Assembly: GCF_003790525.1 (NCBI RefSeq)
Contig: NZ_CP033635.1
DNA length: 64,000 nucleotides
Direction: 5' to 3' (one strand)
Origin: Escherichia coli
GTDB lineage: Bacteria; Pseudomonadota; Gammaproteobacteria; Enterobacterales; Enterobacteriaceae
Positions 3,223-36,488 of the stretch are shown piece after piece; position 1 is the stretch's first letter; the number at the start of each line of letters is the position of its first letter. The position numbers and the translations under genes are program-made. The notes below the pieces were generated by a model, which was given only the letters and a program-made list of their open reading frames with translations, made no database searches and was not told the DNA's origin.

Positions 3223-4380
3223 ATGGAGCGCAACGTCACGCTCGATTTTGTTCGCGGCGTCGCCATTCTGGGGATCCTGCTATTAAACATCAGCGCCTTT
3301 GGGCTACCAAAGGCGGCTTATCTCAATCCCGCCTGGTACGGCGCTATTACGTCGCAGGATGCATGGACCTGGGCATTTCTCGATCTCATCGGCCAGGTGA
3401 AATTCCTCACGCTTTTTGCTCTGCTGTTTGGTGCGGGCCTGCAAATGTTGCTGCCCCGTGGCAGACGCTGGATCCAGTCGCGGTTAACGCTGTTAGTCTT
3501 GCTGGGCTTTATTCACGGTTTATTGTTCTGGGACGGCGATATTCTGCTGGCTTACGGGCTGGTGGGCTTAATCTGCTGGCGGCTGGTGCGCGATGCGCCA
3601 TCGGTAAAAAGCCTGTTTAATACAGGCGTCATGCTTTATCTGGTGGGGCTTGGCGTTTTGCTGTTATTGGGGCTGATTTCCGACAGCCAGACCAGCCGCG
3701 CCTGGACGCCGGATGCATCGGCTATTTTGTATGAAAAATACTGGAAGCTTCACGGCGGCGTTGAAGCGATCAGTAATCGTGCCGATGGTGTTGGCAACAG
3801 TTTACTGGCACTGGGCGCACAGTATGGCTGGCAACTGGCAGGGATGATGCTCATTGGTGCCGCATTGATGCGCAGCGGCTGGCTGAAAGGGCAGTTCAGC
3901 TTACGTCACTATCGTCGTACTGGTTTTGTGCTGGTGGCGATTGGGGTGACCATTAACCTTCCTGCCATCGCCCTGCAATGGCAGCTGGACTGGGCGTATC
4001 GCTGGTGTGCATTCTTACTTCAAATGCCGCGGGAACTGAGTGCGCCGTTTCAGGCGATTGGCTATGCGTCGCTGTTTTATGGCTTCTGGCCGCAATTAAG
4101 CCGCTTTAAGCTGGTGCTGGCAATCGCCTGTGTCGGACGGATGGCACTGACCAACTATCTATTGCAAACGCTGATTTGTACCACGCTTTTTTACCACCTC
4201 GGTTTGTTTATGCTGTTTGACCGTCTGGAATTGCTGGCGTTTGTTATTCCGGTATGGCTGGCGAATATTCTCTTCTCTGTTATCTGGCTGCGTTACTTCC
4301 GCCAGGGGCCGGTGGAATGGCTCTGGCGTCAGTTAACTTTGCGTGCAGCTGGGCCGGCAAGATCTAAAACATCAAGATAA
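3223..4380 (+). CDS. yeiB: Inner membrane protein (DUF418 family)
   Basis: 385 aa multi-pass hydrophobic ORF; synteny. Confidence 0.8.
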   Translation: MERNVTLDFVRGVAILGILLLNISAFGLPKAAYLNPAWYGAITSQDAWTWAFLDLIGQVKFLTLFALLFGAGLQMLLPRGRRWIQSRLTLLVLLGFIHGLLFWDGDILLAYGLVGLICWRLVRDAPSVKSLFNTGVMLYLVGLGVLLLLGLISDSQTSRAWTPDASAILYEKYWKLHGGVEAISNRADGVGNSLLALGAQYGWQLAGMMLIGAALMRSGWLKGQFSLRHYRRTGFVLVAIGVTINLPAIALQWQLDWAYRWCAFLLQMPRELSAPFQAIGYASLFYGFWPQLSRFKLVLAIACVGRMALTNYLLQTLICTTLFYHLGLFMLFDRLELLAFVIPVWLANILFSVIWLRYFRQGPVEWLWRQLTLRAAGPARSKTSR

Positions 4381-8436: not shown

Positions 8437-9447
8437 ATGAGTGCGTTAAATAAGAAAAGTTTTCTTACTTACCTGAAAGAAGGCGGTATTTACGTCGTTC
8501 TTTTAGTTTTGCTGGCAATTATTATTTTCCAGGACCCAACATTTTTAAGTCTGTTGAACTTAAGTAATATTCTCACCCAGTCATCGGTGCGTATTATTAT
8601 CGCGCTCGGTGTGGCAGGGTTAATTGTCACCCAGGGGACCGACCTTTCTGCAGGTCGCCAGGTGGGGCTGGCGGCAGTAGTAGCGGCGACGTTGTTGCAG
8701 TCCATGGATAACGCCAACAAAGTGTTCCCGGAAATGGCGACGATGCCGATTGCGCTGGTTATTCTGATTGTCTGTGCCATTGGTGCGGTGATCGGTTTGA
8801 TTAACGGCCTGATTATCGCTTATCTCAACGTGACGCCATTCATTACCACGCTCGGCACGATGATCATCGTCTATGGCATCAACTCGCTCTATTACGACTT
8901 TGTCGGGGCGTCGCCAATTTCTGGTTTTGACAGTGGCTTCTCTACCTTTGCTCAGGGCTTTGTCGCGCTGGGGAGTTTCCGTCTCTCTTACATCACCTTC
9001 TATGCGTTGATTGCGGTGGTGTTTGTCTGGGTGTTGTGGAACAAAACCCGCTTCGGTAAGAACATTTTTGCCATTGGCGGTAACCCGGAAGCGGCGAAAG
9101 TATCTGGTGTCAACGTCGGCCTGAACCTGCTGATGATCTACGCGTTGTCTGGTGTGTTCTATGCCTTCGGCGGGATGTTAGAAGCCGGACGTATCGGCTC
9201 AGCCACCAATAACCTCGGCTTTATGTATGAGCTGGATGCTATCGCGGCGTGCGTGGTAGGCGGCGTATCGTTCAGCGGCGGTGTGGGGACGGTGATTGGC
9301 GTGGTGACCGGGGTAATTATTTTTACCGTCATCAACTATGGCCTGACGTATATCGGCGTAAACCCATACTGGCAGTACATCATCAAAGGGGCGATTATTA
9401 TCTTCGCCGTAGCGCTGGATTCACTGAAATACGCGCGTAAGAAATGA
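8437..9447 (+). CDS. mglC: Galactose ABC transporter permease
   Basis: 336 aa polytopic membrane protein immediately after mglA. Confidence 0.95.
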   Translation: MSALNKKSFLTYLKEGGIYVVLLVLLAIIIFQDPTFLSLLNLSNILTQSSVRIIIALGVAGLIVTQGTDLSAGRQVGLAAVVAATLLQSMDNANKVFPEMATMPIALVILIVCAIGAVIGLINGLIIAYLNVTPFITTLGTMIIVYGINSLYYDFVGASPISGFDSGFSTFAQGFVALGSFRLSYITFYALIAVVFVWVLWNKTRFGKNIFAIGGNPEAAKVSGVNVGLNLLMIYALSGVFYAFGGMLEAGRIGSATNNLGFMYELDAIAACVVGGVSFSGGVGTVIGVVTGVIIFTVINYGLTYIGVNPYWQYIIKGAIIIFAVALDSLKYARKK

Positions 9448-9462
9448 TGTGAATGTGGGTAT

Positions 9463-9513
9463 TGCCGGATGCGCTGCATCCGGCATTCGGTGCCAAATGC
9501 CGGATGTGACGCG
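9463..9513. repeat. REP/BIME element
   Basis: Two GCCGGATG-type palindromic units (TGCCGGATGCG...CATCCGGCA...) between convergent mglC and preA. Confidence 0.6.
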
Positions 9514-9517
9514 GGTT

Positions 9518-10753
9518 CTACAACGTTACCGGGTGTTCTTTCTCGCCTTTCTTAAACTTCACTTCTCCGAGATCAATACAACCCACCGGGCAGACGTGAC
9601 CACAAAGCAGACAACCCACGCATTTCTCGGTATTACAATGCGGTGTACGGGTTTTCTCGCTCCATTCCATCGCCTGGTGACCGCCGTCGTAACAGGAAAT
9701 ATAACAGCGTCCACAGCCAACACATTTATCGAGATTGATATGGGGATAGACAATATAACTGCGGTCTAAATCTTCCGCCGGGACAATATTATTATTCGCC
9801 AGACCTACCATCTCCTGCAACGAATCAAATCCCTGATCGGTGAGATAATGCGACAACCCGCTCGCCATATCTTCCACTATCCGATACCCGTACTGCATAA
9901 TGCCGGTGGTCACCTGCAACGTCGCTGCACCGAGCAATAAAAACTCCGCCGCATCTTCCCAGGTTTCAATACCGCCGATACCGCTGATCGGGAAATCGCG
10001 CAGCTCTGGATGGGTACGCATTTGCTGAATGAAGCGCAGGGCGATCGGTTTTACCGCTTTACCGGAATATCCGGAAATACTCGATTTACCGTTAACGATC
10101 GGCATACCGATTTTCTGATTAAGATCGATATTGGTGATGGATTTAACGGTGTTAATCGCCGCAATGCCATCTGCGCCGCCGCGCTTCGCCGCCAGCGCCA
10201 CTTCGCACATATCACCGATATTCGGCGTCATCTTCGCCAGCATTGGCAGCGTGGAACCACGTTTTACTGCCCGACAATATTTTTCTACCAGCTCCGGGCT
10301 TTGCCCGACATCGCTACCCATCGCATGAGAAGTCATTTGCGGACAGGAGAAGTTACACTCGATCATATCCGCGCCAGCTTCTTGCACCAGACGCGCCAGC
10401 TCTTCCCATTGCTGCTCATTTTCGCCCATGATTGAAGCGATCAATACTTTGTCCGGGTAATCTTCTTTCAGCCGACGCAGGGCGGCCAGATTCTCTTCCA
10501 ACGGATGTTCAGCAATCTGCTCCATATTTTTGAAGCCGATAAAACCGGTATCTTCTTTCACCAGATGATCAAAACGCGGCGAGACTTCGTTGGCGATAAA
10601 AAAGCCGATCGTTTTAAACACCACGCCGCCCCAGCCAGTGTCGTAGGCTTTGGCACACATCTCATAGCAGTTGCCTACCGGCGAAGAAGAGAGGCAGAAC
10701 GGGTTGGGAAACTTCACGCCGCAAAAAGTAATCGAAAGATCTTTCGTTAACAT
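9518..10753 (-). CDS. preA: NAD-dependent dihydropyrimidine dehydrogenase subunit PreA (4Fe-4S/TIM barrel)
   Basis: DHOD-like fold with C-terminal CxxCxxC ferredoxin motifs; start at MLTKDL. Confidence 0.85.
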
Positions 10754-25588: not shown

Positions 25589-25945
25589 GCTTCGACATCC
25601 TTCGCAAATCTTATACAAGTAAGATGGAATAAACCGGGGTCAGAGAGGGGGCTGTTCAAAACCTCGCCAACTCTAGAAATACAATTTAGAGAATTAGGGC
25701 GAGCCGTCAAGCATTTGACAGGGGACAGGGGGCAGGTATGAATCAAAAATTTGAAGCAGTTAACGCTATTGACAGGAATGTGACAGATGTCGCTGATGCC
25801 AACGATAGATGATAGTTATTTATCATCTAGTGTTCGCGGGTGTTCGTGGTAGTGTTTTGTGTGCATTCATCGCTATGATTATAAAGGAAAATTTTGTTTT
25901 ACTTGTTCGCTCTTGTTCGTCACGGTTTGCCCTTGTACGATGCAC

Positions 25946-25969
25946 GGTGTAGTCAATGGTGTAGTTAAT
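25946..25969. repeat. Island attL direct repeat
   Basis: GGTGTAGTCAATGGTGTAGTTAAT; an additional GTTCGCGG(G/T)TGTTCG block at 25832-25846 is also repeated at the right end (36264-36278). Confidence 0.65.
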
Positions 25970-25992
25970 TTTGATGACCGGAAACGCGAAAC

Positions 25993-27231
25993 ATGAGCAG
26001 CGCAATTCATAGACTTAGCGACACTCTTTTACGAAAATTAAGCGGATCACCAACCACAAAAAACGCCTTTTTTAATGACGGTGGCAATCTTAGCGTAAGA
26101 CATTCCACCAGCGGCCTGTTAACCTGGTATTTCACTTACAGGGCCGGAACTGGCAGGCAGGTATCACCGGAACGCCTGAGACTGGGCAACTATCCCGATC
26201 TGAGCCTGAAAGCAGCCAGGGAAAAAGCGGCACAGTGTCGCGCCTGGCTGGCGGAGGGGAAAAATCCACGCCATGAGCTTAATCACACAGTGCAGGAAGC
26301 GTTAGCCCCCGTGACGGTTAAGGACGCGCTCACTTACTGGCTTGAGTCGTATGCGAAGGAAAAGCGCACTGACCACGAATCACTGAAAAGCCGTATCAAT
26401 AAGCACATAATCAGCCAGATTGGTGCTATGCCGCTGGATAAATGCGAGCTACGCCACTGGCTGGCCTGTTTTGACCAGCTTGCTAAGCGTAATCCGGTAT
26501 CAGCCGGCTTTTTGTTGCAGGTATGCAAACAGGCGCTTAAGTACTGCCGTAAACGTCGCTACGCCGTCAGTAACGTTCTTGATGATATGGTCGTAGGTGA
26601 TGTGGGAAAAAAAGCAGAAATAAGCGAGCGAGTGCTAACAAACAAGGAGCTTGGCGAGCTACTCCGCGCACTGGATGAAAAAATTTTCCCGCCGTACTAC
26701 AGCGCTTTAATTCGCCTTCTGATTGTCTTCGGATGCCGTACCACTGAGCTAAGACGCTCCGAGGTTCGGGAATGGGATTTTAAAGAAATGCTCTGGACTG
26801 TGCCGAAAGAACACAGCAAAACGAAGGTAGCAATATTCAGGCCAATACCGGAAGCGATCTTGCCGTTCGTCATGAAGCTGGTGGAGCAGAACAGGCACAC
26901 GGGCTTATTGCTTGGAGAACTGAAAGGGCAATCATCCGTAGCAGAGTACGGAAGAACGGCACACAGACGCATTAATCAAGCCCCCTGGTCGTTGCACGAC
27001 ATCCGGCACACATTTACAACCATGCTGAACGATTTAGGCGTGGATCCGCATATTGTCGAACAGCTTACTGCCCACCAGATGCCAGGAATGCAACGCGTCT
27101 ATAACCACTCCCGTTATCTCGATGCAAAGCGTGACGCTCTTAATCTATGGGTAGACCGTCTCGAGCTTCTCCAGAACAATGATGAAAAAATCGTTGTTAT
27201 GACCCCGCGAATTTACCCCCAAAATTCTTGA
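25993..27231 (+). CDS. int: Tyrosine integrase (P4-type)
   Basis: 412 aa; C-terminal catalytic region (...HDIRHTFTTML...YNHSRYLD) adjacent to the att repeat. Confidence 0.85.
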   Translation: MSSAIHRLSDTLLRKLSGSPTTKNAFFNDGGNLSVRHSTSGLLTWYFTYRAGTGRQVSPERLRLGNYPDLSLKAAREKAAQCRAWLAEGKNPRHELNHTVQEALAPVTVKDALTYWLESYAKEKRTDHESLKSRINKHIISQIGAMPLDKCELRHWLACFDQLAKRNPVSAGFLLQVCKQALKYCRKRRYAVSNVLDDMVVGDVGKKAEISERVLTNKELGELLRALDEKIFPPYYSALIRLLIVFGCRTTELRRSEVREWDFKEMLWTVPKEHSKTKVAIFRPIPEAILPFVMKLVEQNRHTGLLLGELKGQSSVAEYGRTAHRRINQAPWSLHDIRHTFTTMLNDLGVDPHIVEQLTAHQMPGMQRVYNHSRYLDAKRDALNLWVDRLELLQNNDEKIVVMTPRIYPQNS

Positions 27232-27650
27232 CAAATTACGGCTGTTTTTTCTTTAAGAGATTACAGCCGTGAATAGATCTTAGAATATCGGGGAATATCT
27301 GCAAATATCTTCTCTTTATATGTGTCAACTATCGAAAAAAATTGAAATGTCTTCTTCTGAGTTCTTATTCTCTGTTTCTTGATTGTTCCAACATCTGATG
27401 GTTTATCTATTTGTTTTTAATGAGGTAATTCAGGTGACATGCCAAATGACGACATTTTTTGTTGCGTCGCTTAAAAACTCGTGACACGATTTTAAACACT
27501 AACGAGCTTCTACGAACCTTAGCGAACAAAGCCTTTAGCATGGTTGTGTTTTTAATTTAAGAGGTGAAAAAGAATCTAAGTAATATCCGATCTCATATAT
27601 CTACAGCTAAGAGAAAAGTTTATATACGTAATTTTTATGTAGGTTTTTGT

Positions 27651-27860
27651 ATGCGTGAAATAAATGAAGATCGCGTAATCCGTGAGGATGAATGTCGTAA
27701 GTTAACTGGAGTGTGTCGCACTACACGCTACGAACTGGAGAAAAAAGGGAGCTTTCCGTCTCGCCGTAATCTTGGTGGGCGTTCTGTAGGTTGGCTGCTG
27801 TCCGAGGTTATGGAATGGGTTAAAAGCCGGGATCGCATTAATTCAGGCAAGGCAGCGTAA
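27651..27860 (+). CDS. alpA: AlpA-family phage transcriptional regulator (excisionase-like HTH)
   Basis: ~69 aa from MREINEDRV...; layout resembles AlpA/Vis-family proteins; position right after int. Confidence 0.65.
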   Translation: MREINEDRVIREDECRKLTGVCRTTRYELEKKGSFPSRRNLGGRSVGWLLSEVMEWVKSRDRINSGKAA

Positions 27861-27998
27861 AGGGGAGTATATGACACATAAAACAAAGGCGACCGGGGGC
27901 GGTCGCCAATGGGAAAACACTAAACATAAGCCCGAACATCATAGCGATTTGCTGGCTGGTGGGCAATGTGTCCAGTGTGGTGGCTTGCTGGTGGATTG

Positions 27999-28199
27999 TC
28001 AGCCAGGTGGGCGGTTTTTGTTTGCTTTTAAGCGCCGAGGGTATTTCTCGACAAAAGGATCAAGGGCGAACTTATCAGGAACTTTAAGATTTTCAGTGCG
28101 GGTTAATGCCTTATTTATTTCCCTGCGGGTTTTCTCACGCTGGCGCATGATAATTGATAATGCTTTATTTTGTAGTTCCTGGTTATTCATAATTATCAC
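27999..28199 (-). CDS. Hypothetical small basic protein
   Basis: 66 aa ORF directly downstream of the RHH gene on the same strand; may be co-transcribed. Confidence 0.35.
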   Translation of the reverse strand: MIIMNNQELQNKALSIIMRQREKTRREINKALTRTENLKVPDKFALDPFVEKYPRRLKANKNRPPG

Positions 28200-28247
28200 C
28201 TTTAAAACAATGCGCCGCAGTACCTCACACCACGGCGCTGATAGTGA

Positions 28248-28427
28248 TTATTCTGATTCTTTGGCCTTGCGGCGCTGGCGGTATTCAACTTCTCGCTTTA
28301 ATGCTGCTGTTACAAACTGCCCTGTACTTTCACCAGGCATTTTTACCGCCTCAACATTGTTCATAACTTCATGCGGAACCCTTGCCGCAACTGTTTGTGA
28401 TTTTGCGTTTACTGCTTTTGTCGCCAT
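28248..28427 (-). CDS. Ribbon-helix-helix (CopG/Arc-like) DNA-binding protein, 59 aa
   Basis: Hand-translated (below the 60-aa track cutoff): MATKAVNAKSQTVAARVPHEVMNNVEAVKMPGESTGQFVTAALKREVEYRQRRKAKESE; palindromic operators lie just upstream. Confidence 0.5.
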   Translation of the reverse strand: MATKAVNAKSQTVAARVPHEVMNNVEAVKMPGESTGQFVTAALKREVEYRQRRKAKESE

Positions 28428-28477
28428 GTTGTGTACCCCTTACAAAAAACAAATGCAGTATGCAGGAAAAAAAATAA

Positions 28478-28530
28478 GTGTTCAACACTTGGCGTGTTTA
28501 ACACCTAGGCTTAAATTGGTGTTCAACACC
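28478..28530. promoter_or_regulatory. Three palindromic operator-like sites
   Basis: GTGTTCAACAC (28478-28488), GTGTTTAACAC (28495-28505), GGTGTTCAACACC (28518-28530) upstream of the RHH gene. Confidence 0.45.
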
Positions 28531-29571
28531 TTGTTGATGAAAGGTGCAGAAACGACGAAACCCCGCACTGTTGGAGCAGTAACGGGGCTTCTAACCACCA
28601 ACGATAGAAAGCGTATCGAGGTAGCTATGTTAAATCATACCACACACCCGCAAGGGCGGGACCCGCACAACCTGAATAAATACATCTGGCGTTTTATCGC
28701 CCTGAGCACAGCACAACCACGCGTTATTACCATCGGGGCCACCAGCGAACAGGAAGCCCGCCAGCAATCCCCGACTGGCTGGGTGATGGTATTGGCCTCC
28801 AGATTTCATCATCGCTGTTTGTTTTTTGTCTGTCTCTCCTCGGGGTATGGGGTTGTGCCGTTCCAGCGTATGCGGGGCCGTTCACTGATGAAGCGCTCAA
28901 GCGGGAAATTATCGGATGGCGCGGGGGGCCGTACCCGTCGTTCCCGCCTCCGCTGGCGTACCACGCTGGCTTCGGTAATTTCCCCTGATTCGTTTATTTT
29001 CATAAAGAGTTACCTCCGTGCTCATCTGCTCTGGCGTTTTCTGTTTCTGATGAAGACTTACAGCGGTAGCGGCGTATCTTATCTTAAGATTTGGTTTAAT
29101 TTCTCGTGTCTGGCTTTAATGACGGCGCGTAATAATATCTGTCGCTGCTTTGTGTTTACGTCCAGAACTGTGGGGGATAATATGGATTTGTTCATGGTGC
29201 TCACCTGTAATGCATTGCGTCGTGATGCCTCATATCACGGCGGCGGTTATCGTTTTGTTCGGATTCGTCCCCTGATGAAATCCTCAAGCGGAAAATGTTC
29301 AGGGCGAGGTAATTCAGGAGGGACAGGGTTATTACTCATGCGCTCACGTTCCCTTGCGGCGCGTGCAGCATTCAGCTTTTGCAGGAGCACATCAAACGGC
29401 ACCCCCTTATCATTCATGGTCCCCCCTGTATATCCGTTGTTAACTGATGGTTACAGGTGCATTTTTCGCACAAACTATTTAATCAACACATCCGACCACA
29501 TTATCAGAGAGCCGGAATATACAGGGGCAATAATCCCGCATTTGCTGGCCTACGCACAGCTTACCGCTGAT

Positions 29572-29859
29572 ATGGCACTGAATGAGGCCAAAGCCATCCT
29601 GATTGCTGATTGTGAATATGGGGTTATGCGTGATGATCGTTTTAATGCCCTGAAACAGGAATTTGATGGCACACCGGAAGATACAGATATTGCGCTGTTA
29701 TGTGTTGCTGACATGGTAAAAGCTGCATGTTTTTTACTGGAAACCGCCGAACATTCAGGAACGGGTAGCGATATTCTCAATATTGCGTCGGACTATGCTG
29801 AATATGTGGCAGAGGCGCGTTACAGAAGAAAATTCCAGGAGGTGGTTAGCCATGAATAA
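29572..29859 (+). CDS. Hypothetical protein (start uncertain; TTG at 29542 is an alternative)
   Basis: Only protein-like portion of the long stop-free frame; ends with an AGGAGG RBS for the next gene. Confidence 0.4.
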   Translation: MALNEAKAILIADCEYGVMRDDRFNALKQEFDGTPEDTDIALLCVADMVKAACFLLETAEHSGTGSDILNIASDYAEYVAEARYRRKFQEVVSHE

Positions 29860-30025
29860 TCATGAAGCGCACTTACCTGTAGTGCTTAATGTGCCATCTG
29901 ATTATACGGGGCGCGTTTTGATATTTCTGGATAAAGGGAAAGTGAAATCGCAATGCCGCCTTAGAAATAATGAGGTTATTGGTTCTCTGGCTTTTTTTCT
30001 GAAGCCTGTATTCGCGCCGGAATAA
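29851..30025 (+). CDS. Hypothetical small protein (57 aa)
   Basis: ATG overlaps the upstream stop (CATGAATAATC) with an AGGAGG SD 8 nt upstream. Confidence 0.4.
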
Positions 30026-30055
30026 AGCCGGAATCACTGACAGGAAAATAAAACC

Positions 30056-30355
30056 ATGAAAAAGAAAAATTCTGGCTTTACTGCCAGCGGCCTCGCTCGG
30101 CCTGAAATCCGTCCCGGCTATATTTTCCGTGATAACTACGGCGGTACGGTAACGATTAAAGGCGTGGCAGAACGGCGCATCACCTACCGCCATGAAGGTT
30201 ACGAATATGATTGCGTGATGCCTGTTTATCAGTTTGTGCGTGATTTTTCTCTTGTGCAGGCCGTACCGCGTAACGTGCCCACCAGCAGGGAGAAAGCACG
30301 CGCCAATATTCAGAAGATGAAAACCATGATTAACGGATTCAGGGGTAAAAAATGA
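30056..30355 (+). CDS. Hypothetical protein
   Basis: 99 aa ORF; 4-bp overlap with the primase start. Confidence 0.5.
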   Translation: MKKKNSGFTASGLARPEIRPGYIFRDNYGGTVTIKGVAERRITYRHEGYEYDCVMPVYQFVRDFSLVQAVPRNVPTSREKARANIQKMKTMINGFRGKK

Positions 30356-32100
30356 AACTGGCACCGAACGTAAAACTGCAGTCACGCGGCATAAAACACA
30401 AAGGAACTGAAGTCATTATTTTTGCGGGTAGTGATGCCTGGGCACACGCGAAACAATGGCAGGAACATGACGCGCGTATGGCCGGAGATAATGAGCCTCC
30501 TGTGTGGCTTGGGGAGCAGCAGTTATCCGAACTGGATAAGCTGCAAATTGTGCCGGAAGGCAGAAAATCCGTGCGTATATTCAGGGCCGGATATCTTGCG
30601 CCAGTAATGATAAAGGCGATTGGTCAGAAGCTGGCGGCGGCTGGCGTACAGGACGCAAATTTTTACCCCGAAGGAATGCACGGTCAGAAGTGTGAAAACT
30701 GGCGGCGTTATCTGAATGCTGAGCGTGAAAATATTGCTGCAGGGCTTACCATGCCGGAGCAGAAAAATACGCAACTGGCACAAATGGCAGACAGTGAGCG
30801 CGCACAGATGCTTGCTGGTCGATTTGATGGCGTTTGTGTGCATCCGGAAAGTGAAATCGTTCACGTATGGCGCGGCGGGGTATGGTGTCCGGTCAGCACA
30901 ATGGAACTGAGCCGCGAAATGGTGGCGATCTATTCAGAGCACAGGGCCACTTTCAGCAAGCGCGTAATCAGTAACGCCGTGGAAGCGTTAAAAGTTATTG
31001 CCGAACCAATGGGCGAGCCGTCCGGCGATTTGCTGCCGTTCGCCAATGGTGCGCTTGACCTGAAAACGGGGGAATTTTCCCCGCACACGCCGGAGAACTG
31101 GATCACCACGCACAACGGCATTGAGTACACGCCACCAGCACCTGGGGAGAACATCCGCGATAACGCGCCAAACTTTCATAAATGGCTTGAGCACGCAGCC
31201 GGAAAAGACCCGCGCAAGATGATGCGTATATGTGCCGCGCTGTACATGATTATGGCGAACCGGTACGACTGGCAGATGTTTATTGAGGCCACCGGAGACG
31301 GCGGGAGCGGTAAAAGTACATTCACACACATAGCCAGCCTTCTGGCAGGGAAACAGAACACGGTAAGTGCTGAGATGACATCGCTTGATGATGCTGGTGG
31401 GCGTGCGCAGGTTGTCGGGAGTCGTCTTATCGTCCTGGCAGACCAGCCGAAATATACAGGCGAAGGAACGGGCATCAAGAAAATCACGGGCGGTGACCCC
31501 GTGGAAATTAACCCGAAATACGAAAAGCGTTTCACGGCTGTAATCAGGGCGGTGGTGCTGGCGACCAACAATAACCCGATGATATTCACCGAACGGGCCG
31601 GAGGTGTGGCACGTCGTCGCGTGATTTTTCGTTTCGACAATATCGTCAGTGAGGCTGAAAAAGACAGGGAGCTACCGGAAAGGATTGCGGCTGAAATCCC
31701 CGTCATTATCCGCCGATTACTGGCGAACTTTGCAGACCCTGAAAAGGCGCGGGCTTTACTACTGGAACAGCGTGACGGTGATGAAGCACTGGCGATAAAG
31801 CAGCAAACGGATCCGGTTATTGAGTTTTGCCAGTTCCTGAATTTTCTGGAGGAAGCACGTGGCCTGATGATGGGTGGCGGTGGCGATTCCGTGAAGTACA
31901 CGACCAGAAACAGCCTGTACCGCGTCTATCTGGCGTTTATGGCATACGCAGGCAGGAGCAAACCGCTGAACGTGGCTGAGTTCAGCAAGGCCATGAAGCC
32001 AGCGGCGAAAGTTTACGGACATGAATATATAACGCGCAGGATTAAAGGGGTTACGCAAACCAACGTGACAACAACAGACGACTGCGACGCGTTTTTATAG
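30352..32100 (+). CDS. P4-family phage/plasmid primase-helicase-like replication protein
   Basis: 582 aa; C-terminal NTPase with Walker A GDGGSGKST and LADQP Walker B-like motif typical of the P4 alpha / D5 family. Confidence 0.8.
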   Translation: MKLAPNVKLQSRGIKHKGTEVIIFAGSDAWAHAKQWQEHDARMAGDNEPPVWLGEQQLSELDKLQIVPEGRKSVRIFRAGYLAPVMIKAIGQKLAAAGVQDANFYPEGMHGQKCENWRRYLNAERENIAAGLTMPEQKNTQLAQMADSERAQMLAGRFDGVCVHPESEIVHVWRGGVWCPVSTMELSREMVAIYSEHRATFSKRVISNAVEALKVIAEPMGEPSGDLLPFANGALDLKTGEFSPHTPENWITTHNGIEYTPPAPGENIRDNAPNFHKWLEHAAGKDPRKMMRICAALYMIMANRYDWQMFIEATGDGGSGKSTFTHIASLLAGKQNTVSAEMTSLDDAGGRAQVVGSRLIVLADQPKYTGEGTGIKKITGGDPVEINPKYEKRFTAVIRAVVLATNNNPMIFTERAGGVARRRVIFRFDNIVSEAEKDRELPERIAAEIPVIIRRLLANFADPEKARALLLEQRDGDEALAIKQQTDPVIEFCQFLNFLEEARGLMMGGGGDSVKYTTRNSLYRVYLAFMAYAGRSKPLNVAEFSKAMKPAAKVYGHEYITRRIKGVTQTNVTTTDDCDAFL

Positions 32101-32109
32101 TTTTAGACA

Positions 32110-32345
32110 AAAGCCCTCTACCCCTTCTACCTTAAGAAAATAATTACATATATTTCATGTTGATAGATTGGGTAGATGGCAGGTAGAAGGTACTTAAAAG
32201 CCCTCTACACCCTCTACCATAATTCAGGGCATTTGTGAGGGGGTGGTAGATGGCAGGTAGAGGGCCAAAAAAGCCCTCTACCCCGCTGAAATCCGCGCCA
32301 TTACTGACCTGAAAGATGATTGTGTAGAGAGGTAGAGGAGGTGCA
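32110..32345. repeat. Iteron cluster (putative island replication origin)
   Basis: About 12 copies of CCCTCTACC / GGTAGAGGG in both orientations (e.g. 32112-32131, 32171-32190, 32199-32218, 32241-32264, 32272-32285, 32328-32342) immediately downstream of the primase gene. Confidence 0.65.
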
Positions 32346-32386
32346 CCACAACACAAAACTTTTTAAACACGAGGGTAAAAATAAAA

Positions 32387-32644
32387 ATGCACACATCAGA
32401 AAAATTTAACAATCAGAAGAAATCACATAACCGCGCCATTGACCTTACAGAGCACTGGCTGAGGGTGGCGATAAAAATCATCGACCGCAACGCGGGAGAA
32501 GGATACGCGAAAGCGCATCCCGAACTGATTAGCGCATTCATGACCACAGCGGCGGCAAACTTTGCCACGCTGACACAACGGGAGATTGCCGAAGCGGAAC
32601 AGGTAACAACCATCAACGTTAAAACCAGTGAGGTGGAATCATGA
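32387..32644 (+). CDS. Hypothetical protein
   Basis: 85 aa ORF; stop overlaps the next start. Confidence 0.45.
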   Translation: MHTSEKFNNQKKSHNRAIDLTEHWLRVAIKIIDRNAGEGYAKAHPELISAFMTTAAANFATLTQREIAEAEQVTTINVKTSEVES

Positions 32645-33051
32645 CAGCACAGATAGCGGCTTACGGGCGGCTGGTGGCTGACCCGCAGTTAAAGACCACC
32701 AGCAAGGGGACACAAATGGCGATGGCGAGTATGGCGGTCCCCCTTCCGTGCAGCCAGGCAGATGACGGAACGGCGACGATGTGGTTATCTGTGCTGGCGT
32801 TTGGCAGACAGGCCGAAGCACTGGCAAAGCACCGCAAGGGTGAACTCCTGAGCGTGGCGGGTAACATGCAGGTCAGCCAGTGGACCGGACAGAACGGGGA
32901 AACGCGGCAGGGCTGGCAGGTTATCGCAGACAGCGTAATCAGTGCGCGGACAGTGCGACCGGGCGGAAAAACACGCAAAACCACAGGCGCACAGGGGAAT
33001 AAGCCACCAGCGGGAGGCGATGGCCCCTACGGAGATGATATACCCTTCTGA
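32641..33051 (+). CDS. Single-stranded-DNA-binding (OB-fold, SSB-like) protein
   Basis: 136 aa; layout resembles the SSB N-terminal OB fold (GRLVADPQL...W..VLAFGRQAE...QW..QNGE.R); C-terminal G/P-rich tail. Confidence 0.55.
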   Translation: MTAQIAAYGRLVADPQLKTTSKGTQMAMASMAVPLPCSQADDGTATMWLSVLAFGRQAEALAKHRKGELLSVAGNMQVSQWTGQNGETRQGWQVIADSVISARTVRPGGKTRKTTGAQGNKPPAGGDGPYGDDIPF

Positions 33052-33068
33052 ATCAGGCGGGGAGCAAC

Positions 33069-33389
33069 ATGAACAACAGCACACCGAAGAACCGGACAAT
33101 AAGCGACGCGACAGCAGAAGAACTCGAGAGCAGGGGACTGTGGCGACGGGCTGCCAGAAGGTGGCAGGATGTGATGATTACTCTTCAGGAAGACAGGCAC
33201 AGAGAACTTGCGGCAATGAGAGCAAGGGAATGTATCAGGAAGGCAAAGCGCCCGATACCTGAAAACCGTTATGATGTTCACGCAGTCAGAAGGGCCGCAG
33301 ACAGGACAATACAACAGATGGGGCTACCGTCGCTTACTGATGAAATATGGCGTGATTACCCTGATAACGTAAATGATGACGGTTATTAA
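33069..33389 (+). CDS. Hypothetical protein
   Basis: 106 aa charged ORF. Confidence 0.45.
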   Translation: MNNSTPKNRTISDATAEELESRGLWRRAARRWQDVMITLQEDRHRELAAMRARECIRKAKRPIPENRYDVHAVRRAADRTIQQMGLPSLTDEIWRDYPDNVNDDGY

Positions 33390-33468
33390 CAGGCGGGGAA
33401 ACACGACACCAGCGGGAGCGACACGGGGTAGCAGATGCCGCTGGTGGAACAGCACAAAGGGGGAGAAC

Positions 33469-34053
33469 ATGACAAAGCTGACCATTAACCGAAAACCAAA
33501 AGGCATATACGGCACACCGCAGAAAAAGACGCAGGAGGCTGAACAGCCGGATAAAACCACACCAGCGCAAAAGCAGAGCCGCGAGCAGAAAACACAACAG
33601 AAGACGGCAGCAAAACGCAAATCAGAAAAGAGCCGGAAAAAAAATATCAGACGCGTTGAACGCCTTGCCGCGCTCTGGCCTGAACTTTTCAGCCAGGAAT
33701 CGCCCAGACCGCTTAAGGTTGGCATATTTGATGACCTGATGGAGGATATTACTGCGAGAGGTATTTCATTAGGTCAGGGAGCGCTTCGCGCAACGCTGGC
33801 GTATTATGTCAGTTCAGTGCGATATTACCGTTCCCTGATGGCTGGTGGCGTGCGTTACGACCTGAAAGGCCATCCGTGCGGGGAGGTGACACAGGAGCAC
33901 CAGTTGAACGCGGGGAAGCGACTGGATGAGATGAAGAAAAAACAGCAGGAGCGCAGAAACATGAAGGCAGAAAATAAGCATAACGGTAAGCCACCAGCAG
34001 GGCATAATATTATTCTGAAAAATGCCAGTTCCTCGGGCGTACGGAAAGCATAA
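33469..34053 (+). CDS. ProQ/FinO-domain RNA-binding protein
   Basis: Lys-rich N-terminus followed by LAALWPELFSQESPRPLKVGIFDDLMEDI...LRATLAYYVSSVRYYRSLMAGGVRYDLKGHPCGEV, close to the ProQ N-terminal FinO domain; start at ATG 33469 with GGGGGAG RBS. Confidence 0.65.
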   Translation: MTKLTINRKPKGIYGTPQKKTQEAEQPDKTTPAQKQSREQKTQQKTAAKRKSEKSRKKNIRRVERLAALWPELFSQESPRPLKVGIFDDLMEDITARGISLGQGALRATLAYYVSSVRYYRSLMAGGVRYDLKGHPCGEVTQEHQLNAGKRLDEMKKKQQERRNMKAENKHNGKPPAGHNIILKNASSSGVRKA

Positions 34054-34075
34054 AACCCTGACCACATGAAGAGAC

Positions 34076-34105
34076 GAAGCCGGAGTAGTCCGGCTTTATT
34101 TTTTA
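34076..34105 (+). terminator. Rho-independent terminator
   Basis: AAGCCGGAGTAGTCCGGCTTT followed by ATTTTTTAT. Confidence 0.55.
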
Positions 34106-34130
34106 TGGGTCCTTTCCGGCATGTGGACCC

Positions 34131-34300
34131 GTTACGGGGCGGCGACCTCGCGCAAAACAACTCCTTATGAAATTTTTACGGGAAATTCAGATCCGTTCTT
34201 CTTTTTTGTAAGTCATTGTGTATATTGAATTTTATTTGTTCTGAGAAAGGATCTGATAAGGCTTCGTTTCGCCTGAAAAGGCAGTTTTAAGATCCTTTCT
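34131..34300 (+). other. Lambda-type cos site (cosN plus cosB-like region)
   Basis: GTTACGGGGCGGCGACCTCGCG matches the lambda cohesive-end region (12-nt GGGCGGCGACCT at 34137-34148); downstream TTATGAAATTTTTACGGG and CCGTTCTTCTTTTTT resemble lambda cosB elements. Confidence 0.65.
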
Positions 34301-34340
34301 TAAAAAAACGGGTCATTTTCTTGCTGGAGGGGATGCTGGT

Positions 34341-34925
34341 GTGAGGGTTAACAAGAAAAAGCTGGCTGAGATTTTTGATGTTGATGTGCGGACTATATCC
34401 ACCTGGCAAAATCAGGGGCTGCCGCTGATATCAGGCGGCGGGAAAGGGAATGAAGCGATTTTTGATACGGGAAAAGCGATTGAGTGGTTCGCTCAGCGTG
34501 AGGCCGACATTGAAAATGAAAAACTTCGTAAGGAAGTCGACGATATGCGCGTGGCTGCTGAGTCGGATCTGCAGCCCGGTACGATTGATTACGAACGCTA
34601 CCGTCTCACAAAAGCACAGGCAGATGCGCAGGAACTTAAAAACGAGCGCGATCGCGGTGACGTGATTGATACAGAGTTTTGCATGTACGCGCTTTCAAAA
34701 CTGGCGAGACAGATTTCATCAATCATGGACAGCCTCCCGCTTACTATGCAAAGGAGCTTCCCACAGATGACCCCCGCCATGCTGGATGGCCTGAAAAAAG
34801 AAGTTGTCAGAGCCTGTAACGCATGCACAAAACTTGATGAAAACATCCCGCGAATGCTGTCCGATTATCTGATGGAAACTACCGGAAATGTGCCTGATAA
34901 GTTTCAGCCGGATAAAGACAAGTAA
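34341..34925 (+). CDS. Nu1-like small terminase subunit homologue (candidate packaging-redirection factor)
   Basis: MRVNKKKLAEIFDVDVRTISTWQNQGLPLISGGGKGNEAIFD...ADIENEKLRKEV...LQPGTIDYERYRLTKAQADAQELKN closely parallels lambda Nu1; GTG start. Confidence 0.75.
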   Translation: MRVNKKKLAEIFDVDVRTISTWQNQGLPLISGGGKGNEAIFDTGKAIEWFAQREADIENEKLRKEVDDMRVAAESDLQPGTIDYERYRLTKAQADAQELKNERDRGDVIDTEFCMYALSKLARQISSIMDSLPLTMQRSFPQMTPAMLDGLKKEVVRACNACTKLDENIPRMLSDYLMETTGNVPDKFQPDKDK

Positions 34926-35086
34926 CGTAGTGCACAATGACCGAAGCCAGTTTACTGACTGGCTTTCAGCGTTGCGCTGGTGGGCGTTATGCGTCAGTGA
35001 TGAACAAAAAACAATCGAAATCGACACCGAAAAATAAAACATCAAGTCATATCAATATATTGCATTGGTGGTGATAACGAATAAAA

Positions 35087-35467
35087 ATGCAAAAACTAGC
35101 CTTTTTCCGCGATGCTCCCGCCCCGTGGCAGGGCACCCCACAAGGAGGACCCGCCATCACTATGGAGGACATGACCATGACCATGACCGAGACCGAAGCG
35201 ATCGGGATAATCCGCAGTATTACCGGAATCAGCCAGCAGGCTGGCGAACAGGAGGCCACGCAGCCGGACAGCGTGATAGCCGAAAATTACGCGTGTGTTG
35301 TTGCTGAGGTGATGCGCCGTGATGGTATTGAGCTTAACGGCGTGGATATGCGCAACATACGAACCAGAGTCCTTGAGTTGCTGGCATACCGTCGCCGTTC
35401 TCAACAACGGAGGGAGAGCGCGAAAAACACTTATCAGTGGAAGAAGCCGGAACGGTTGCGGCGGTAG
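35087..35467 (+). CDS. Hypothetical protein (true start may be the internal MEDMTM...)
   Basis: 126 aa ORF; last protein-like ORF before the right att. Confidence 0.4.
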   Translation: MQKLAFFRDAPAPWQGTPQGGPAITMEDMTMTMTETEAIGIIRSITGISQQAGEQEATQPDSVIAENYACVVAEVMRRDGIELNGVDMRNIRTRVLELLAYRRRSQQRRESAKNTYQWKKPERLRR

Positions 35468-36293
35468 ATTCCTGATATTCAGGAAAACCACGAATCCGGG
35501 GGTTTTACTGGCGCGGTGTACACGGTGGAACGCATAGCGTTACCTGACTTATTGCATTGTAAAAAGTTAGAAAGGCACGGCCTGTAAGATGGGATGTTGT
35601 GAGTAGTTTAAAGCTACCCGCAAATTCTTTCGTTGTGCTGGCACAGGCGGTTAAACCGTCGGTAACTGGATAATCCCCACTGGGGGAAAAGCTGGCTACA
35701 TCCCTCACATCTGAGGACTGATAATGCGACATTGCGCTGGCTGGTGGGTGAGTTGCAGATTTGCAACTCGACCATGAAACTACGGAAACTACCCGTAGTT
35801 TGGGTAGTAAGAGTAACACCCAGATTTTGGGGCTTACTCGCGATACCCAAATAAAGGGTATCGGTGGAAGAAATATCGTTTCTCATATGTAAGTACCGAG
35901 GGCGGAATTCCGCCTTCGGTTACTTATTGTGCTCATTCACAGGGAGGGGCGGGTCAAATCTCTGTACCCTGACGTCTTCAGGACTGCCCGCCCCATCGAT
36001 TTTTTATACCCGCGAAAAATGAAAAACGCTTCACGCTGGTGGGCCTGATGCCGATATGGGGAGCCGCATACCGGAGAATATCCACCAGCACGGCAACAGC
36101 AGAATAGCCCCGACACAGAAAAACCACGAATATGGGGTTTTTGTTATGGCATGGTCATGATGACCGCCCCTGCTCTGAATGGTGGAAATCACCACGCAGA
36201 TCATCCACCAGCTTCATGACGGATAGCCGGAAAATGATAATGATTAAAGCGTGTTGATCTTTGTTCGCGGTTGTTCGATATTGTTCGTGAAGC

Positions 36294-36317
36294 GGTGTAG
36301 TTAATGGTGTAGTTAAT
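36294..36317. repeat. Island attR direct repeat
   Basis: GGTGTAGTTAATGGTGTAGTTAAT, 23/24 identical to attL. Confidence 0.65.
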
Positions 36318-36488
36318 ATCACTGTTTTTGACGGGCTTGTTATTTGCAACATAATGAAAAATAAAGACTAATTAACTAAATGATATAAGATAGTTATCTA
36401 TCATGTGGAGTAGATTGGTCAGGCAAATAAGCTCTTGTCAGCGGCAGGGCGTTCTGCCGATAACCGTAACCGAAGATGATAACTGACA

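Follow-up and report, generated by a model that had tools for sequence, protein, structure and literature searches.

A TCTACC iteron cluster downstream of Pri-Rep as the probable replication origin of an Escherichia coli phage-inducible chromosomal island

The island and its replicase

The window (the whole 64-kb stretch of Escherichia coli DNA that was analysed) contains a mobile element inserted between cspD/yljB and clpS. The element is bounded by two 11-bp att cores, ATGATAGTTAT at 25809-25819 and AAGATAGTTAT at 36387-36397, which are one mismatch apart. The same att core and the same cspD-clpS site are listed for the phage-inducible chromosomal islands (PICIs) EcCIIHE3034 and EcCI18098 (Table S1 of PMC6092414), and the element is therefore identified as a 10.6-kb PICI. 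It shows the hallmarks of these islands: int, alpA, genes that all point rightward, a dedicated att site and a size of ~10 kb. Unidirectional transcription of the island is also described for the Gram-negative PICI lineage (PMC6092414). The region occurs at ≥98.6% identity in eight complete E. coli genomes. The features of the island and of the cluster described below are collected in Table 1.

Table 1. Positions in the window of the island, its genes and the elements of the iteron cluster
Feature	Position	Strand	Basis or remark
PICI, 10.6 kb, between cspD/yljB and clpS	25809-36397	+	att cores and gene content
Tyrosine integrase	25993-27231	+	
AlpA	27564-27860	+	
DUF4222 gene	30056-30355	+	Pfam; overlaps the replicase start
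Replicase Pri-Rep, 582 aa	30352-32100	+	N-terminal ~140 aa, D5_N/DUF5906 SF3 helicase, C-terminal origin-binding domain
Presumed iteron-recognition domain (residues 486-577)	31807-32082	+	homologous to the P4 alpha origin-binding domain
Putative ori, whole gap from replicase to 85-aa ORF	32101-32386	.	aligned with EcCICFT073, EcCIIHE3034 and EcCIRM13514
Tandem unit 1	32109-32190	.	AAAAG and two forward iterons, AT-rich spacer, two reverse iterons
Iteron pair A (CCCTCTACC, CCTTCTACC)	32114-32131	+	9-bp period; cores near-invariant in 68 orthologous sequences
AT-rich spacer of unit 1	32132-32170	.	39 bp, 18% GC; candidate DNA-unwinding element
Iteron pair B (GGTAGATGG, GGTAGAAGG on the + strand)	32171-32190	-	11-bp period
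Tandem unit 2	32196-32264		AAAAG and pair C (32201, 32210, forward), 26-bp spacer, pair D (32245, 32256, reverse)
Tandem unit 3, degenerate	32269-32339		AAAAG and one forward iteron E (32274-32282), GC-rich block, reverse pair F
Reverse pair F	32323-32331 and 32331-32339	-	8-bp period
Forward iteron copies	32114 CCCTCTACC; 32123 CCTTCTACC; 32201 CCCTCTACA; 32210 CCCTCTACC; 32274 CCCTCTACC	+	
Reverse iteron copies	32171 GGTAGATGG; 32182 GGTAGAAGG; 32245 GGTAGATGG; 32256 GGTAGAGGG; 32323 TGTAGAGAG; 32331 GGTAGAGGA	-	+ strand spelling
22-bp block CTGAAAtCCGCGCCATTACTG, non-iteron	32286-32307	.	mean column identity 0.96 over 68 distinct sequences
Near-invariant block with AAAACTTTTTAAAC, then the ribosome-binding site of the 85-aa ORF	32348-32386	+	column identity 0.95
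85-aa ORF, phrog_1231	32387-32644	+	common to islands with other iteron types
Island SSB	32641-33051	+	Pfam SSB, E 6.5e-16
PerC-family regulator, 106 aa	33069-33389	+	
ProQ/FinO-family RNA-binding protein, 226 aa	33373-34053	+	absent from EcCICFT073 and EcCIIHE3034
cosN-like sequence GGGCGGCGACCTCGCGCA	34137-34154	+	upstream of terS; 2 mismatches to the lambda-type probe
Nu1-family small terminase, terS	34341-34925	+	Pfam

The 662-aa ORF called mechanically at 27871-29859 is likely an over-call. The near-identical TUM1886 record has two small minus-strand genes beneath the 5' part of this ORF, one of them from the YlcI/YnfO family; the plus-strand gene at this place encodes a 477-aa Icd-like protein and is followed by a frameshifted fragment. 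The island also lacks capsid genes, unlike EcCICFT073 and most of the relatives fetched. The cosN-like match is the only one in the window, and the gene content suggests a cos-type island that would rely on terS and cos for packaging.

The replicase matches the Pfam families D5_N, DUF5906 and Pox_D5, and falls just below the model cut-off of NCBIfam TIGR01613 (P4-family 'primase C-terminal'). Its helicase core matches PDB entry 7OLA (E 4.5e-15) and its residues 486-577 match PDB entry 1KA8 (phmmer, E 9.4e-7), the C-terminal domain of P4 alpha, known as its winged-helix origin-binding domain. The BLASTP alignment with P4 alpha covers alpha residues 326-762 only (39% identity, E 3e-111), and no BLASTP alignment was found to alpha residues 1-325, the primase part. 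Residues 1-150 of the replicase had no Pfam hit, not even with the cut-off relaxed to E ≤ 10. Since the N-terminal ~140 residues show no alignment with the alpha primase part, 'primase' is an inherited label for this protein. The initial annotation had named the gene a P4-family primase, which is borne out for the helicase and origin-binding regions and fails for the primase domain. From its sequence the protein is best described as an SF3 helicase that would load itself and that carries an origin-binding domain.

The N-terminus of the replicase (residues 1-140; 30352-30771) is 59% identical to that of a replicase with a RepA-family helicase from another PICI (L092, 1852-2250). This N-terminal module corresponds to phrog_2850; it is portable and is common to unrelated PICI helicases, and it may serve in priming, in recruiting DnaG or as a partner of DUF4222.

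The iteron cluster

The cluster starts 13 nt past the replicase stop codon, which ends at 32100. By sequence reading and pattern searches, 11 copies of a 9-mer with a TCTACC core were found in 32114-32339, five in forward and six in reverse orientation. Four of the 11 copies are exact (CCCTCTACC or GGTAGAGGG) and the other seven differ at 1-2 positions, with TCTAC(C) as the invariant portion. The earlier count of about twelve 9-bp copies in both orientations within 240 bp was thus essentially right and the coordinates given for them (32110-32345) were accurate, with the full conserved intergenic region extending over 32101-32386. The repeats are real, but they are short inverted pairs rather than the tandem iterons of plasmids.

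The sites are strongly concentrated. When CCCTCTACC is searched at ≤1 mismatch, 10 of the 13 matches in the 64-kb window fall inside the 226 bp of 32114-32339, against an expectation from shuffles of ~6.7 per 64 kb, or ~0.02 per 226-bp interval. The TCTACC/GGTAGA hexamer occurs 25 times in the window, nine of them within the same interval, and a scan of the 64-kb window found no 300-bp stretch outside the cluster with more than one such hexamer. No second TCTACC cluster was found in the island, where the only further hexamers are isolated ones at 27150 and 35463, and neither the window's replicase gene nor the EcCICFT073 fragment tested for plasmid maintenance (see below) contains TCTACC sites.

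The repeat-family search revealed a higher-order layout of three tandem units, each opening with AAAAGCCCTCTAC (at 32109, 32196 and 32269). In the plan of a unit, a spacer separates two leading forward sites from the two reverse sites that follow, an arrangement that the initial annotation had not noted. The ~80-bp units were defined by this search and by eye; they are too diverged for Tandem Repeats Finder, which returned 11-bp and 8-bp sub-arrays only. In unit 3 the conserved GC-rich block takes the place of the second forward site and the spacer. The DNA fold of the cluster has a z score of -4.4 (single-strand hairpin or cruciform); this value follows automatically from the inverted iterons and so provides no independent evidence.

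Several smaller features of the intergenic region were also recorded. The bases after the 32286-32307 block form a hairpin with TTACTGGC in some relatives, though not in the window. The A-tract/T-tract that follows the last reverse pair also occurs in the PICI origin of L090 (~3440-3460), which is of the TGTTCACC type described below, and a tract in the same place is found in both 120-bp crr units of P4 (P4 record L094, 4448-4462 and 4287-4300). Just past this tract, relatives differ in the length of the G-run in the 85-aa ORF's ribosome-binding site, which has from 5 to ~10 G. The exact 10-mer CCGCGCCATT is present both in the conserved block (32293-32302) and in the coding sequence of the 85-aa ORF (32431-32440), 138 bp apart; the recurrence of a 10-mer within 900 bp is compatible with chance.

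Conservation, the tested counterpart and natural module swaps

Pri-Rep of EcCICFT073 and the replicase of the window share 94% identity, and the intergenic regions of the two islands align. Both regions sit downstream of pri-rep and ahead of the 85-aa ORF and ssb, and they are nearly equal in length (286 bp in the window and 288 bp in EcCICFT073). They share the TCTACC core, 11 sites in nearly the same order and orientation and an AT-rich spacer between the first inverted sets. Counted from the stop codon, the core offsets are 17>,26>,72<,83<,104>,113>,146<,157<,177>,224<,232< in the window and 17>,26>,73<,94>,105>,114>,146<,157<,178>,225<,234< in EcCICFT073 (> forward, < reverse), so that the two layouts differ by one site, which is reverse at offset 83 in the window and forward at offset 94 in EcCICFT073. 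The bases 5' of the core also differ, the sites reading CCN-TCTACC in the window and YTR-TCTACC in EcCICFT073, as do three residues of the origin-binding domain (AEFS in the window, NDFG in EcCICFT073). The islands further differ in their integration site (cspD-clpS versus ycfD-phoQ) and in their downstream cargo, which comprises ProQ/FinO and Nu1-like terS genes in the window and capsid and decoration genes in EcCICFT073.

The EcCICFT073 region has been studied experimentally. When its pri and ori were placed on a thermosensitive plasmid, colonies were obtained at the restrictive temperature, 44 °C (Fillol-Salom 2018, ISME J, PMC6092414 Fig. 2b), and fewer were obtained once pri or ori had been deleted; for Δori the colony numbers are described as 'significantly reduced' and not as abolished (PMC6092414). 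Mapping of the published primers on the CFT073 locus places the end of the Δori construct (primer rep-3c) at L088 6251, 4 nt past the pri stop, and the end of the full construct (primer rep-2c) ~20 nt into the 85-aa ORF. The primers therefore map to the pri stop and to the start of the 85-aa ORF, and the ori that was tested is the counterpart of 32101-32386 in the window.

To describe conservation more broadly, 87 loci with close replicase relatives (L001-L087) were assembled, which gave 68 distinct downstream sequences. All 68 retain 9-12 cores. The column identity is 0.90 in the cores, 0.75 in the other columns and 0.61 in the three bases beside each core (Mann-Whitney p = 5e-9), which indicates that the sites are under selective constraint. 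Conservation of the sites among such closely related islands partly reflects shared ancestry. The AT spacer, which is 38-50 bp long in 65 orthologues with a mean GC content of 0.23 (range 0.13-0.34), drifts in sequence (column identity 0.80) while its composition is kept. Across the 87 loci, AEFS at residues 542-545 of the replicase goes with CCN-TCTACC and NDFG with YTR-TCTACC, with one exception (L014). This link between the three variable residues and the flavour of the iterons is suggestive, and it is confounded by the physical linkage of the two.

The same comparison bears on the possibility that the cluster is a chance or decaying repeat without function. The degeneracy of unit 3 is the one feature that points this way. 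Against it, the enrichment lies far above that of shuffled sequence, and the number, order and orientation of the sites are kept both in the 68 distinct sequences and in a family with a different recognition sequence, which makes a functionless repeat extremely improbable.

That family is part of a series of natural module swaps. Many E. coli islands have the same 85-aa ORF and SSB but another replicase 3' end and another intergenic region, and four of these were examined. In three of the four (L090, L091 and L093) the replicase has 606-608 residues and is 48% identical to that of the window (measured for L090); the C-terminus of the 608-aa replicase of L090 matches 1KA8 at E 2e-24. The L090-type intergenic regions, 287 bp in length, carry CTGTTCACC sites that contain the P4 type-1 octamer TGTTCACC, at offsets that nearly coincide with those of the window: 17>,27>,69<,91>,103>,110>,143<,153<,164<,177<,186>,229<,237<. 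The fourth island encodes a RepA-family helicase and has AAGTGAGG repeats; its DUF4222 protein is 74% identical to that of the window island. The 22-bp CTGAAAtCCGCGCCATTACTG block is absent from both the TGTTCACC-type and the AAGTGAGG-type origins. The DUF4222 protein, the N-terminal domain of the replicase (59% identity), the 85-aa ORF and SSB are all kept across iteron types, and only the segment encoding the helicase and origin-binding region changes with the repeats, which is the pattern that would be expected of sites bound by the initiator. The DUF4222 protein, the replicase N-terminal domain and the 85-aa protein were each considered as the iteron binder and rejected, as all three are common to islands with different iterons.

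The swaps also argue against a regulatory role in which the repeats would be the operator or promoter of the 85-aa ORF, ssb, perC, the proQ-like gene and terS, bound by a regulator of the island instead of the replicase. The cluster does lie directly upstream of this operon-like row of genes, no terminator was found after the replicase gene or between it and the cluster, and there is one weak sigma-70-like match at 32194-32223. However, a change of the helicase and origin-binding module brings other iterons but leaves the 85-aa ORF and SSB in place, and neither the DUF4222 protein nor the 85-aa protein tracks the iteron type. The -10 element of the weak promoter is not conserved in the orthologues, and promoter-like matches are at the level of shuffled sequence (one found versus 0.8 expected). 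A purely regulatory cluster is accordingly judged very unlikely. A dual role, for example autoregulation through binding of the replicase, may exist. A scan of 31800-32700 against Rfam at E ≤ 1 found no RNA family.

A further alternative is a packaging signal, with the repeats acting as cosB-like or pac-like sites for the small terminase. The cosB site of lambda consists of repeated Nu1 binding sites, and the island encodes a small terminase of the Nu1 family. The cosN-like GGGCGGCGACCTCGCGCA, however, lies directly upstream of terS and 1.8 kb from the cluster, and islands whose packaging genes differ widely carry orthologous origins; we give this explanation almost no credence.

Origin function and relationship to P4

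Taken together, the analyses indicate that the cluster is very probably the replication origin of this E. coli PICI. The initial annotation had proposed a likely replication origin, and the proposal is supported by the orthology with EcCICFT073, by the conserved cores and by the co-variation of iterons and helicase. As in a PICI origin, the cluster lies directly 3' of pri-rep and pairs A and B flank a 39-bp spacer of 18% GC. Several observations count against this reading: the replicase has no recognisable primase domain for priming, loss of ori in EcCICFT073 is described as lowering colony numbers and not as abolishing them, and the cluster in the same place in P4, whose replicase is the closest characterised relative, is crr. 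An origin of this kind, with this layout and function, is already known from work published in 2018, so that the assignment is correct but ordinary.

A plausible course of initiation can be drawn up from these features. After induction by a helper phage and excision of the island, the replicase would bind the 11 TCTACC sites through its C-terminal winged-helix domain, a step based on the homology of this domain and on the co-variation of the iterons with it. Because the inverted pairs are arranged in three tandem units, protomers would lie opposite one another on the two sides of a spacer. The replicase would then oligomerize at the sites and melt the 39-bp spacer of unit 1, by analogy with P4 alpha, SaPI Rep and the SF3 helicases of SV40 and papillomavirus, and would load itself as the replicative helicase. 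Single strands would be covered by the island's own SSB, whose gene is the second one downstream, and synthesis would fall to host polymerase III.

The region gives no indication that DnaA or IHF takes part. Two matches to the DnaA box with one mismatch (32101 and 32361) compare with ~0.6 expected from the window-wide rate, and the match at 32361 is not kept in EcCICFT073. The origin region contains no IHF consensus at ≤1 mismatch, no GATC and no conserved DnaA box. Such an absence fits an initiator that would bring its own helicase.

The comparison with P4 draws on its GenBank annotation and on established knowledge. P4 has its iteron cluster directly behind alpha; the annotation names this cluster crr, a region required in cis, and puts the origin at 9086-9809, 4.5 kb away. 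The initiators of P4 and of the window island share homologous helicase and origin-binding domains (39% identity). Both elements have short sites in both orientations directly 3' of the initiator gene, arranged in units of forward sites, an AT-rich stretch, a reverse pair and an A/T tract. The differences are equally clear. The recognition octamer is TGTTCACC in P4, as in the sister PICIs L090, L091 and L093, whereas the window has TCTACC. P4 has a bipartite system of ori1 and crr, whereas the window island has a single cluster; the P4 repeats are two of 120 bp, whereas the window has three units of ~75-87 bp. In the window there is no terminator between gene and cluster, and the replicase lacks the N-terminal primase domain of alpha. 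The origin is thus P4-like in its predicted mode of action and falls outside the P4 group in its recognition octamer, in the absence of a bipartite layout and in its lack of the primase domain. The 'usual rep-ori layout of satellites' that had been invoked for this locus holds for the placement of the cluster 3' of the replicase gene, whereas by position the P4 counterpart is crr and not ori1.

The position of crr raises the question of whether the cluster might instead be a cis-acting enhancer, to which the replicase binds while synthesis starts elsewhere, as at P4 ori1, 4.5 kb from crr. The P4 annotation, with crr directly 3' of alpha and the origin at 9086-9809, speaks for such an arrangement, as does the resemblance of the P4 crr unit (forward sites, AT-rich stretch, reverse pair, A/T tract) to the units of the window. 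However, there is no second TCTACC group in the island, and none in the replicase gene or in the tested EcCICFT073 fragment, and pri with the intergenic region of EcCICFT073 alone supported plasmid maintenance (PMC6092414). The single cluster and the sufficiency of EcCICFT073 pri and ori make a role solely as an enhancer improbable, and an origin remains the preferred assignment.

Other classes of origin resemble the cluster less closely. The classical iteron origins of plasmids (pSC101, F, P1, R6K and RK2) are alike in that repeated sites adjoin an AT-rich region and the initiator gene. They have tandem direct repeats of 17-22 bp, an initiator of the RepA or pi type, DnaA boxes and the host DnaB/DnaC, whereas the window has 9-bp sites in both orientations, with periods of 8-11 bp within pairs, and an initiator that is itself a predicted helicase. 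In the system of PDB entry 7OLA a self-loading helicase likewise serves as the initiator, whereas the sequences are unrelated. The origins of SV40 (large T antigen) and papillomavirus (E1) combine inverted short sites next to AT-rich DNA with an initiator that joins an origin-binding domain to an SF3 helicase and assembles on the origin. The likeness to these viruses is one of analogy only, as their origin-binding domains belong to another fold family and their hosts are different.

In the collections searched, no phage record contained the 286-bp region and the plasmid records gave one partial match only; within these collections, this type of origin is confined to chromosomal islands. Its relatives are common there. 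A place covering ≥80% of a 1.1-kb query, made up of the replicase 3' end, the origin and the 85-aa ORF, was found in 559 of 5,426 complete E. coli genomes, with up to six related places per genome.

The stretch can now be annotated as a putative replication element, acting in cis, of a mobile island through which PerC and ProQ/FinO-like genes spread with helper phages. The analysis makes two modest additions to what was known: the natural swap series ties the specificity of the iterons to the segment for helicase and origin binding, and the position of the cluster provides a link to P4 crr. A wider interpretation, which we offer tentatively and regard as possible rather than probable when its parts are taken jointly, is that in evolutionary terms the PICI origin corresponds to P4 crr and not to ori1, with re-specified recognition sites and a site for a second factor in the 22-bp block. 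The ancestral origin of the P4-alpha family would then have been located directly after the initiator gene, and the distant ori1 of P4 would be a later addition. A scaffold of ~11 sites would have remained fixed while recognition was re-specified along with the helicase module, from CTGTTCACC to CTGTCTACC to CCCTCTACC, and to AAGTGAGG with the RepA-type helicase. The block at 32286-32307, present in the TCTACC group only, would be the candidate site of the second factor. If this interpretation is true, the islands would fall into replication-specificity groups that would let several of them share one cell.
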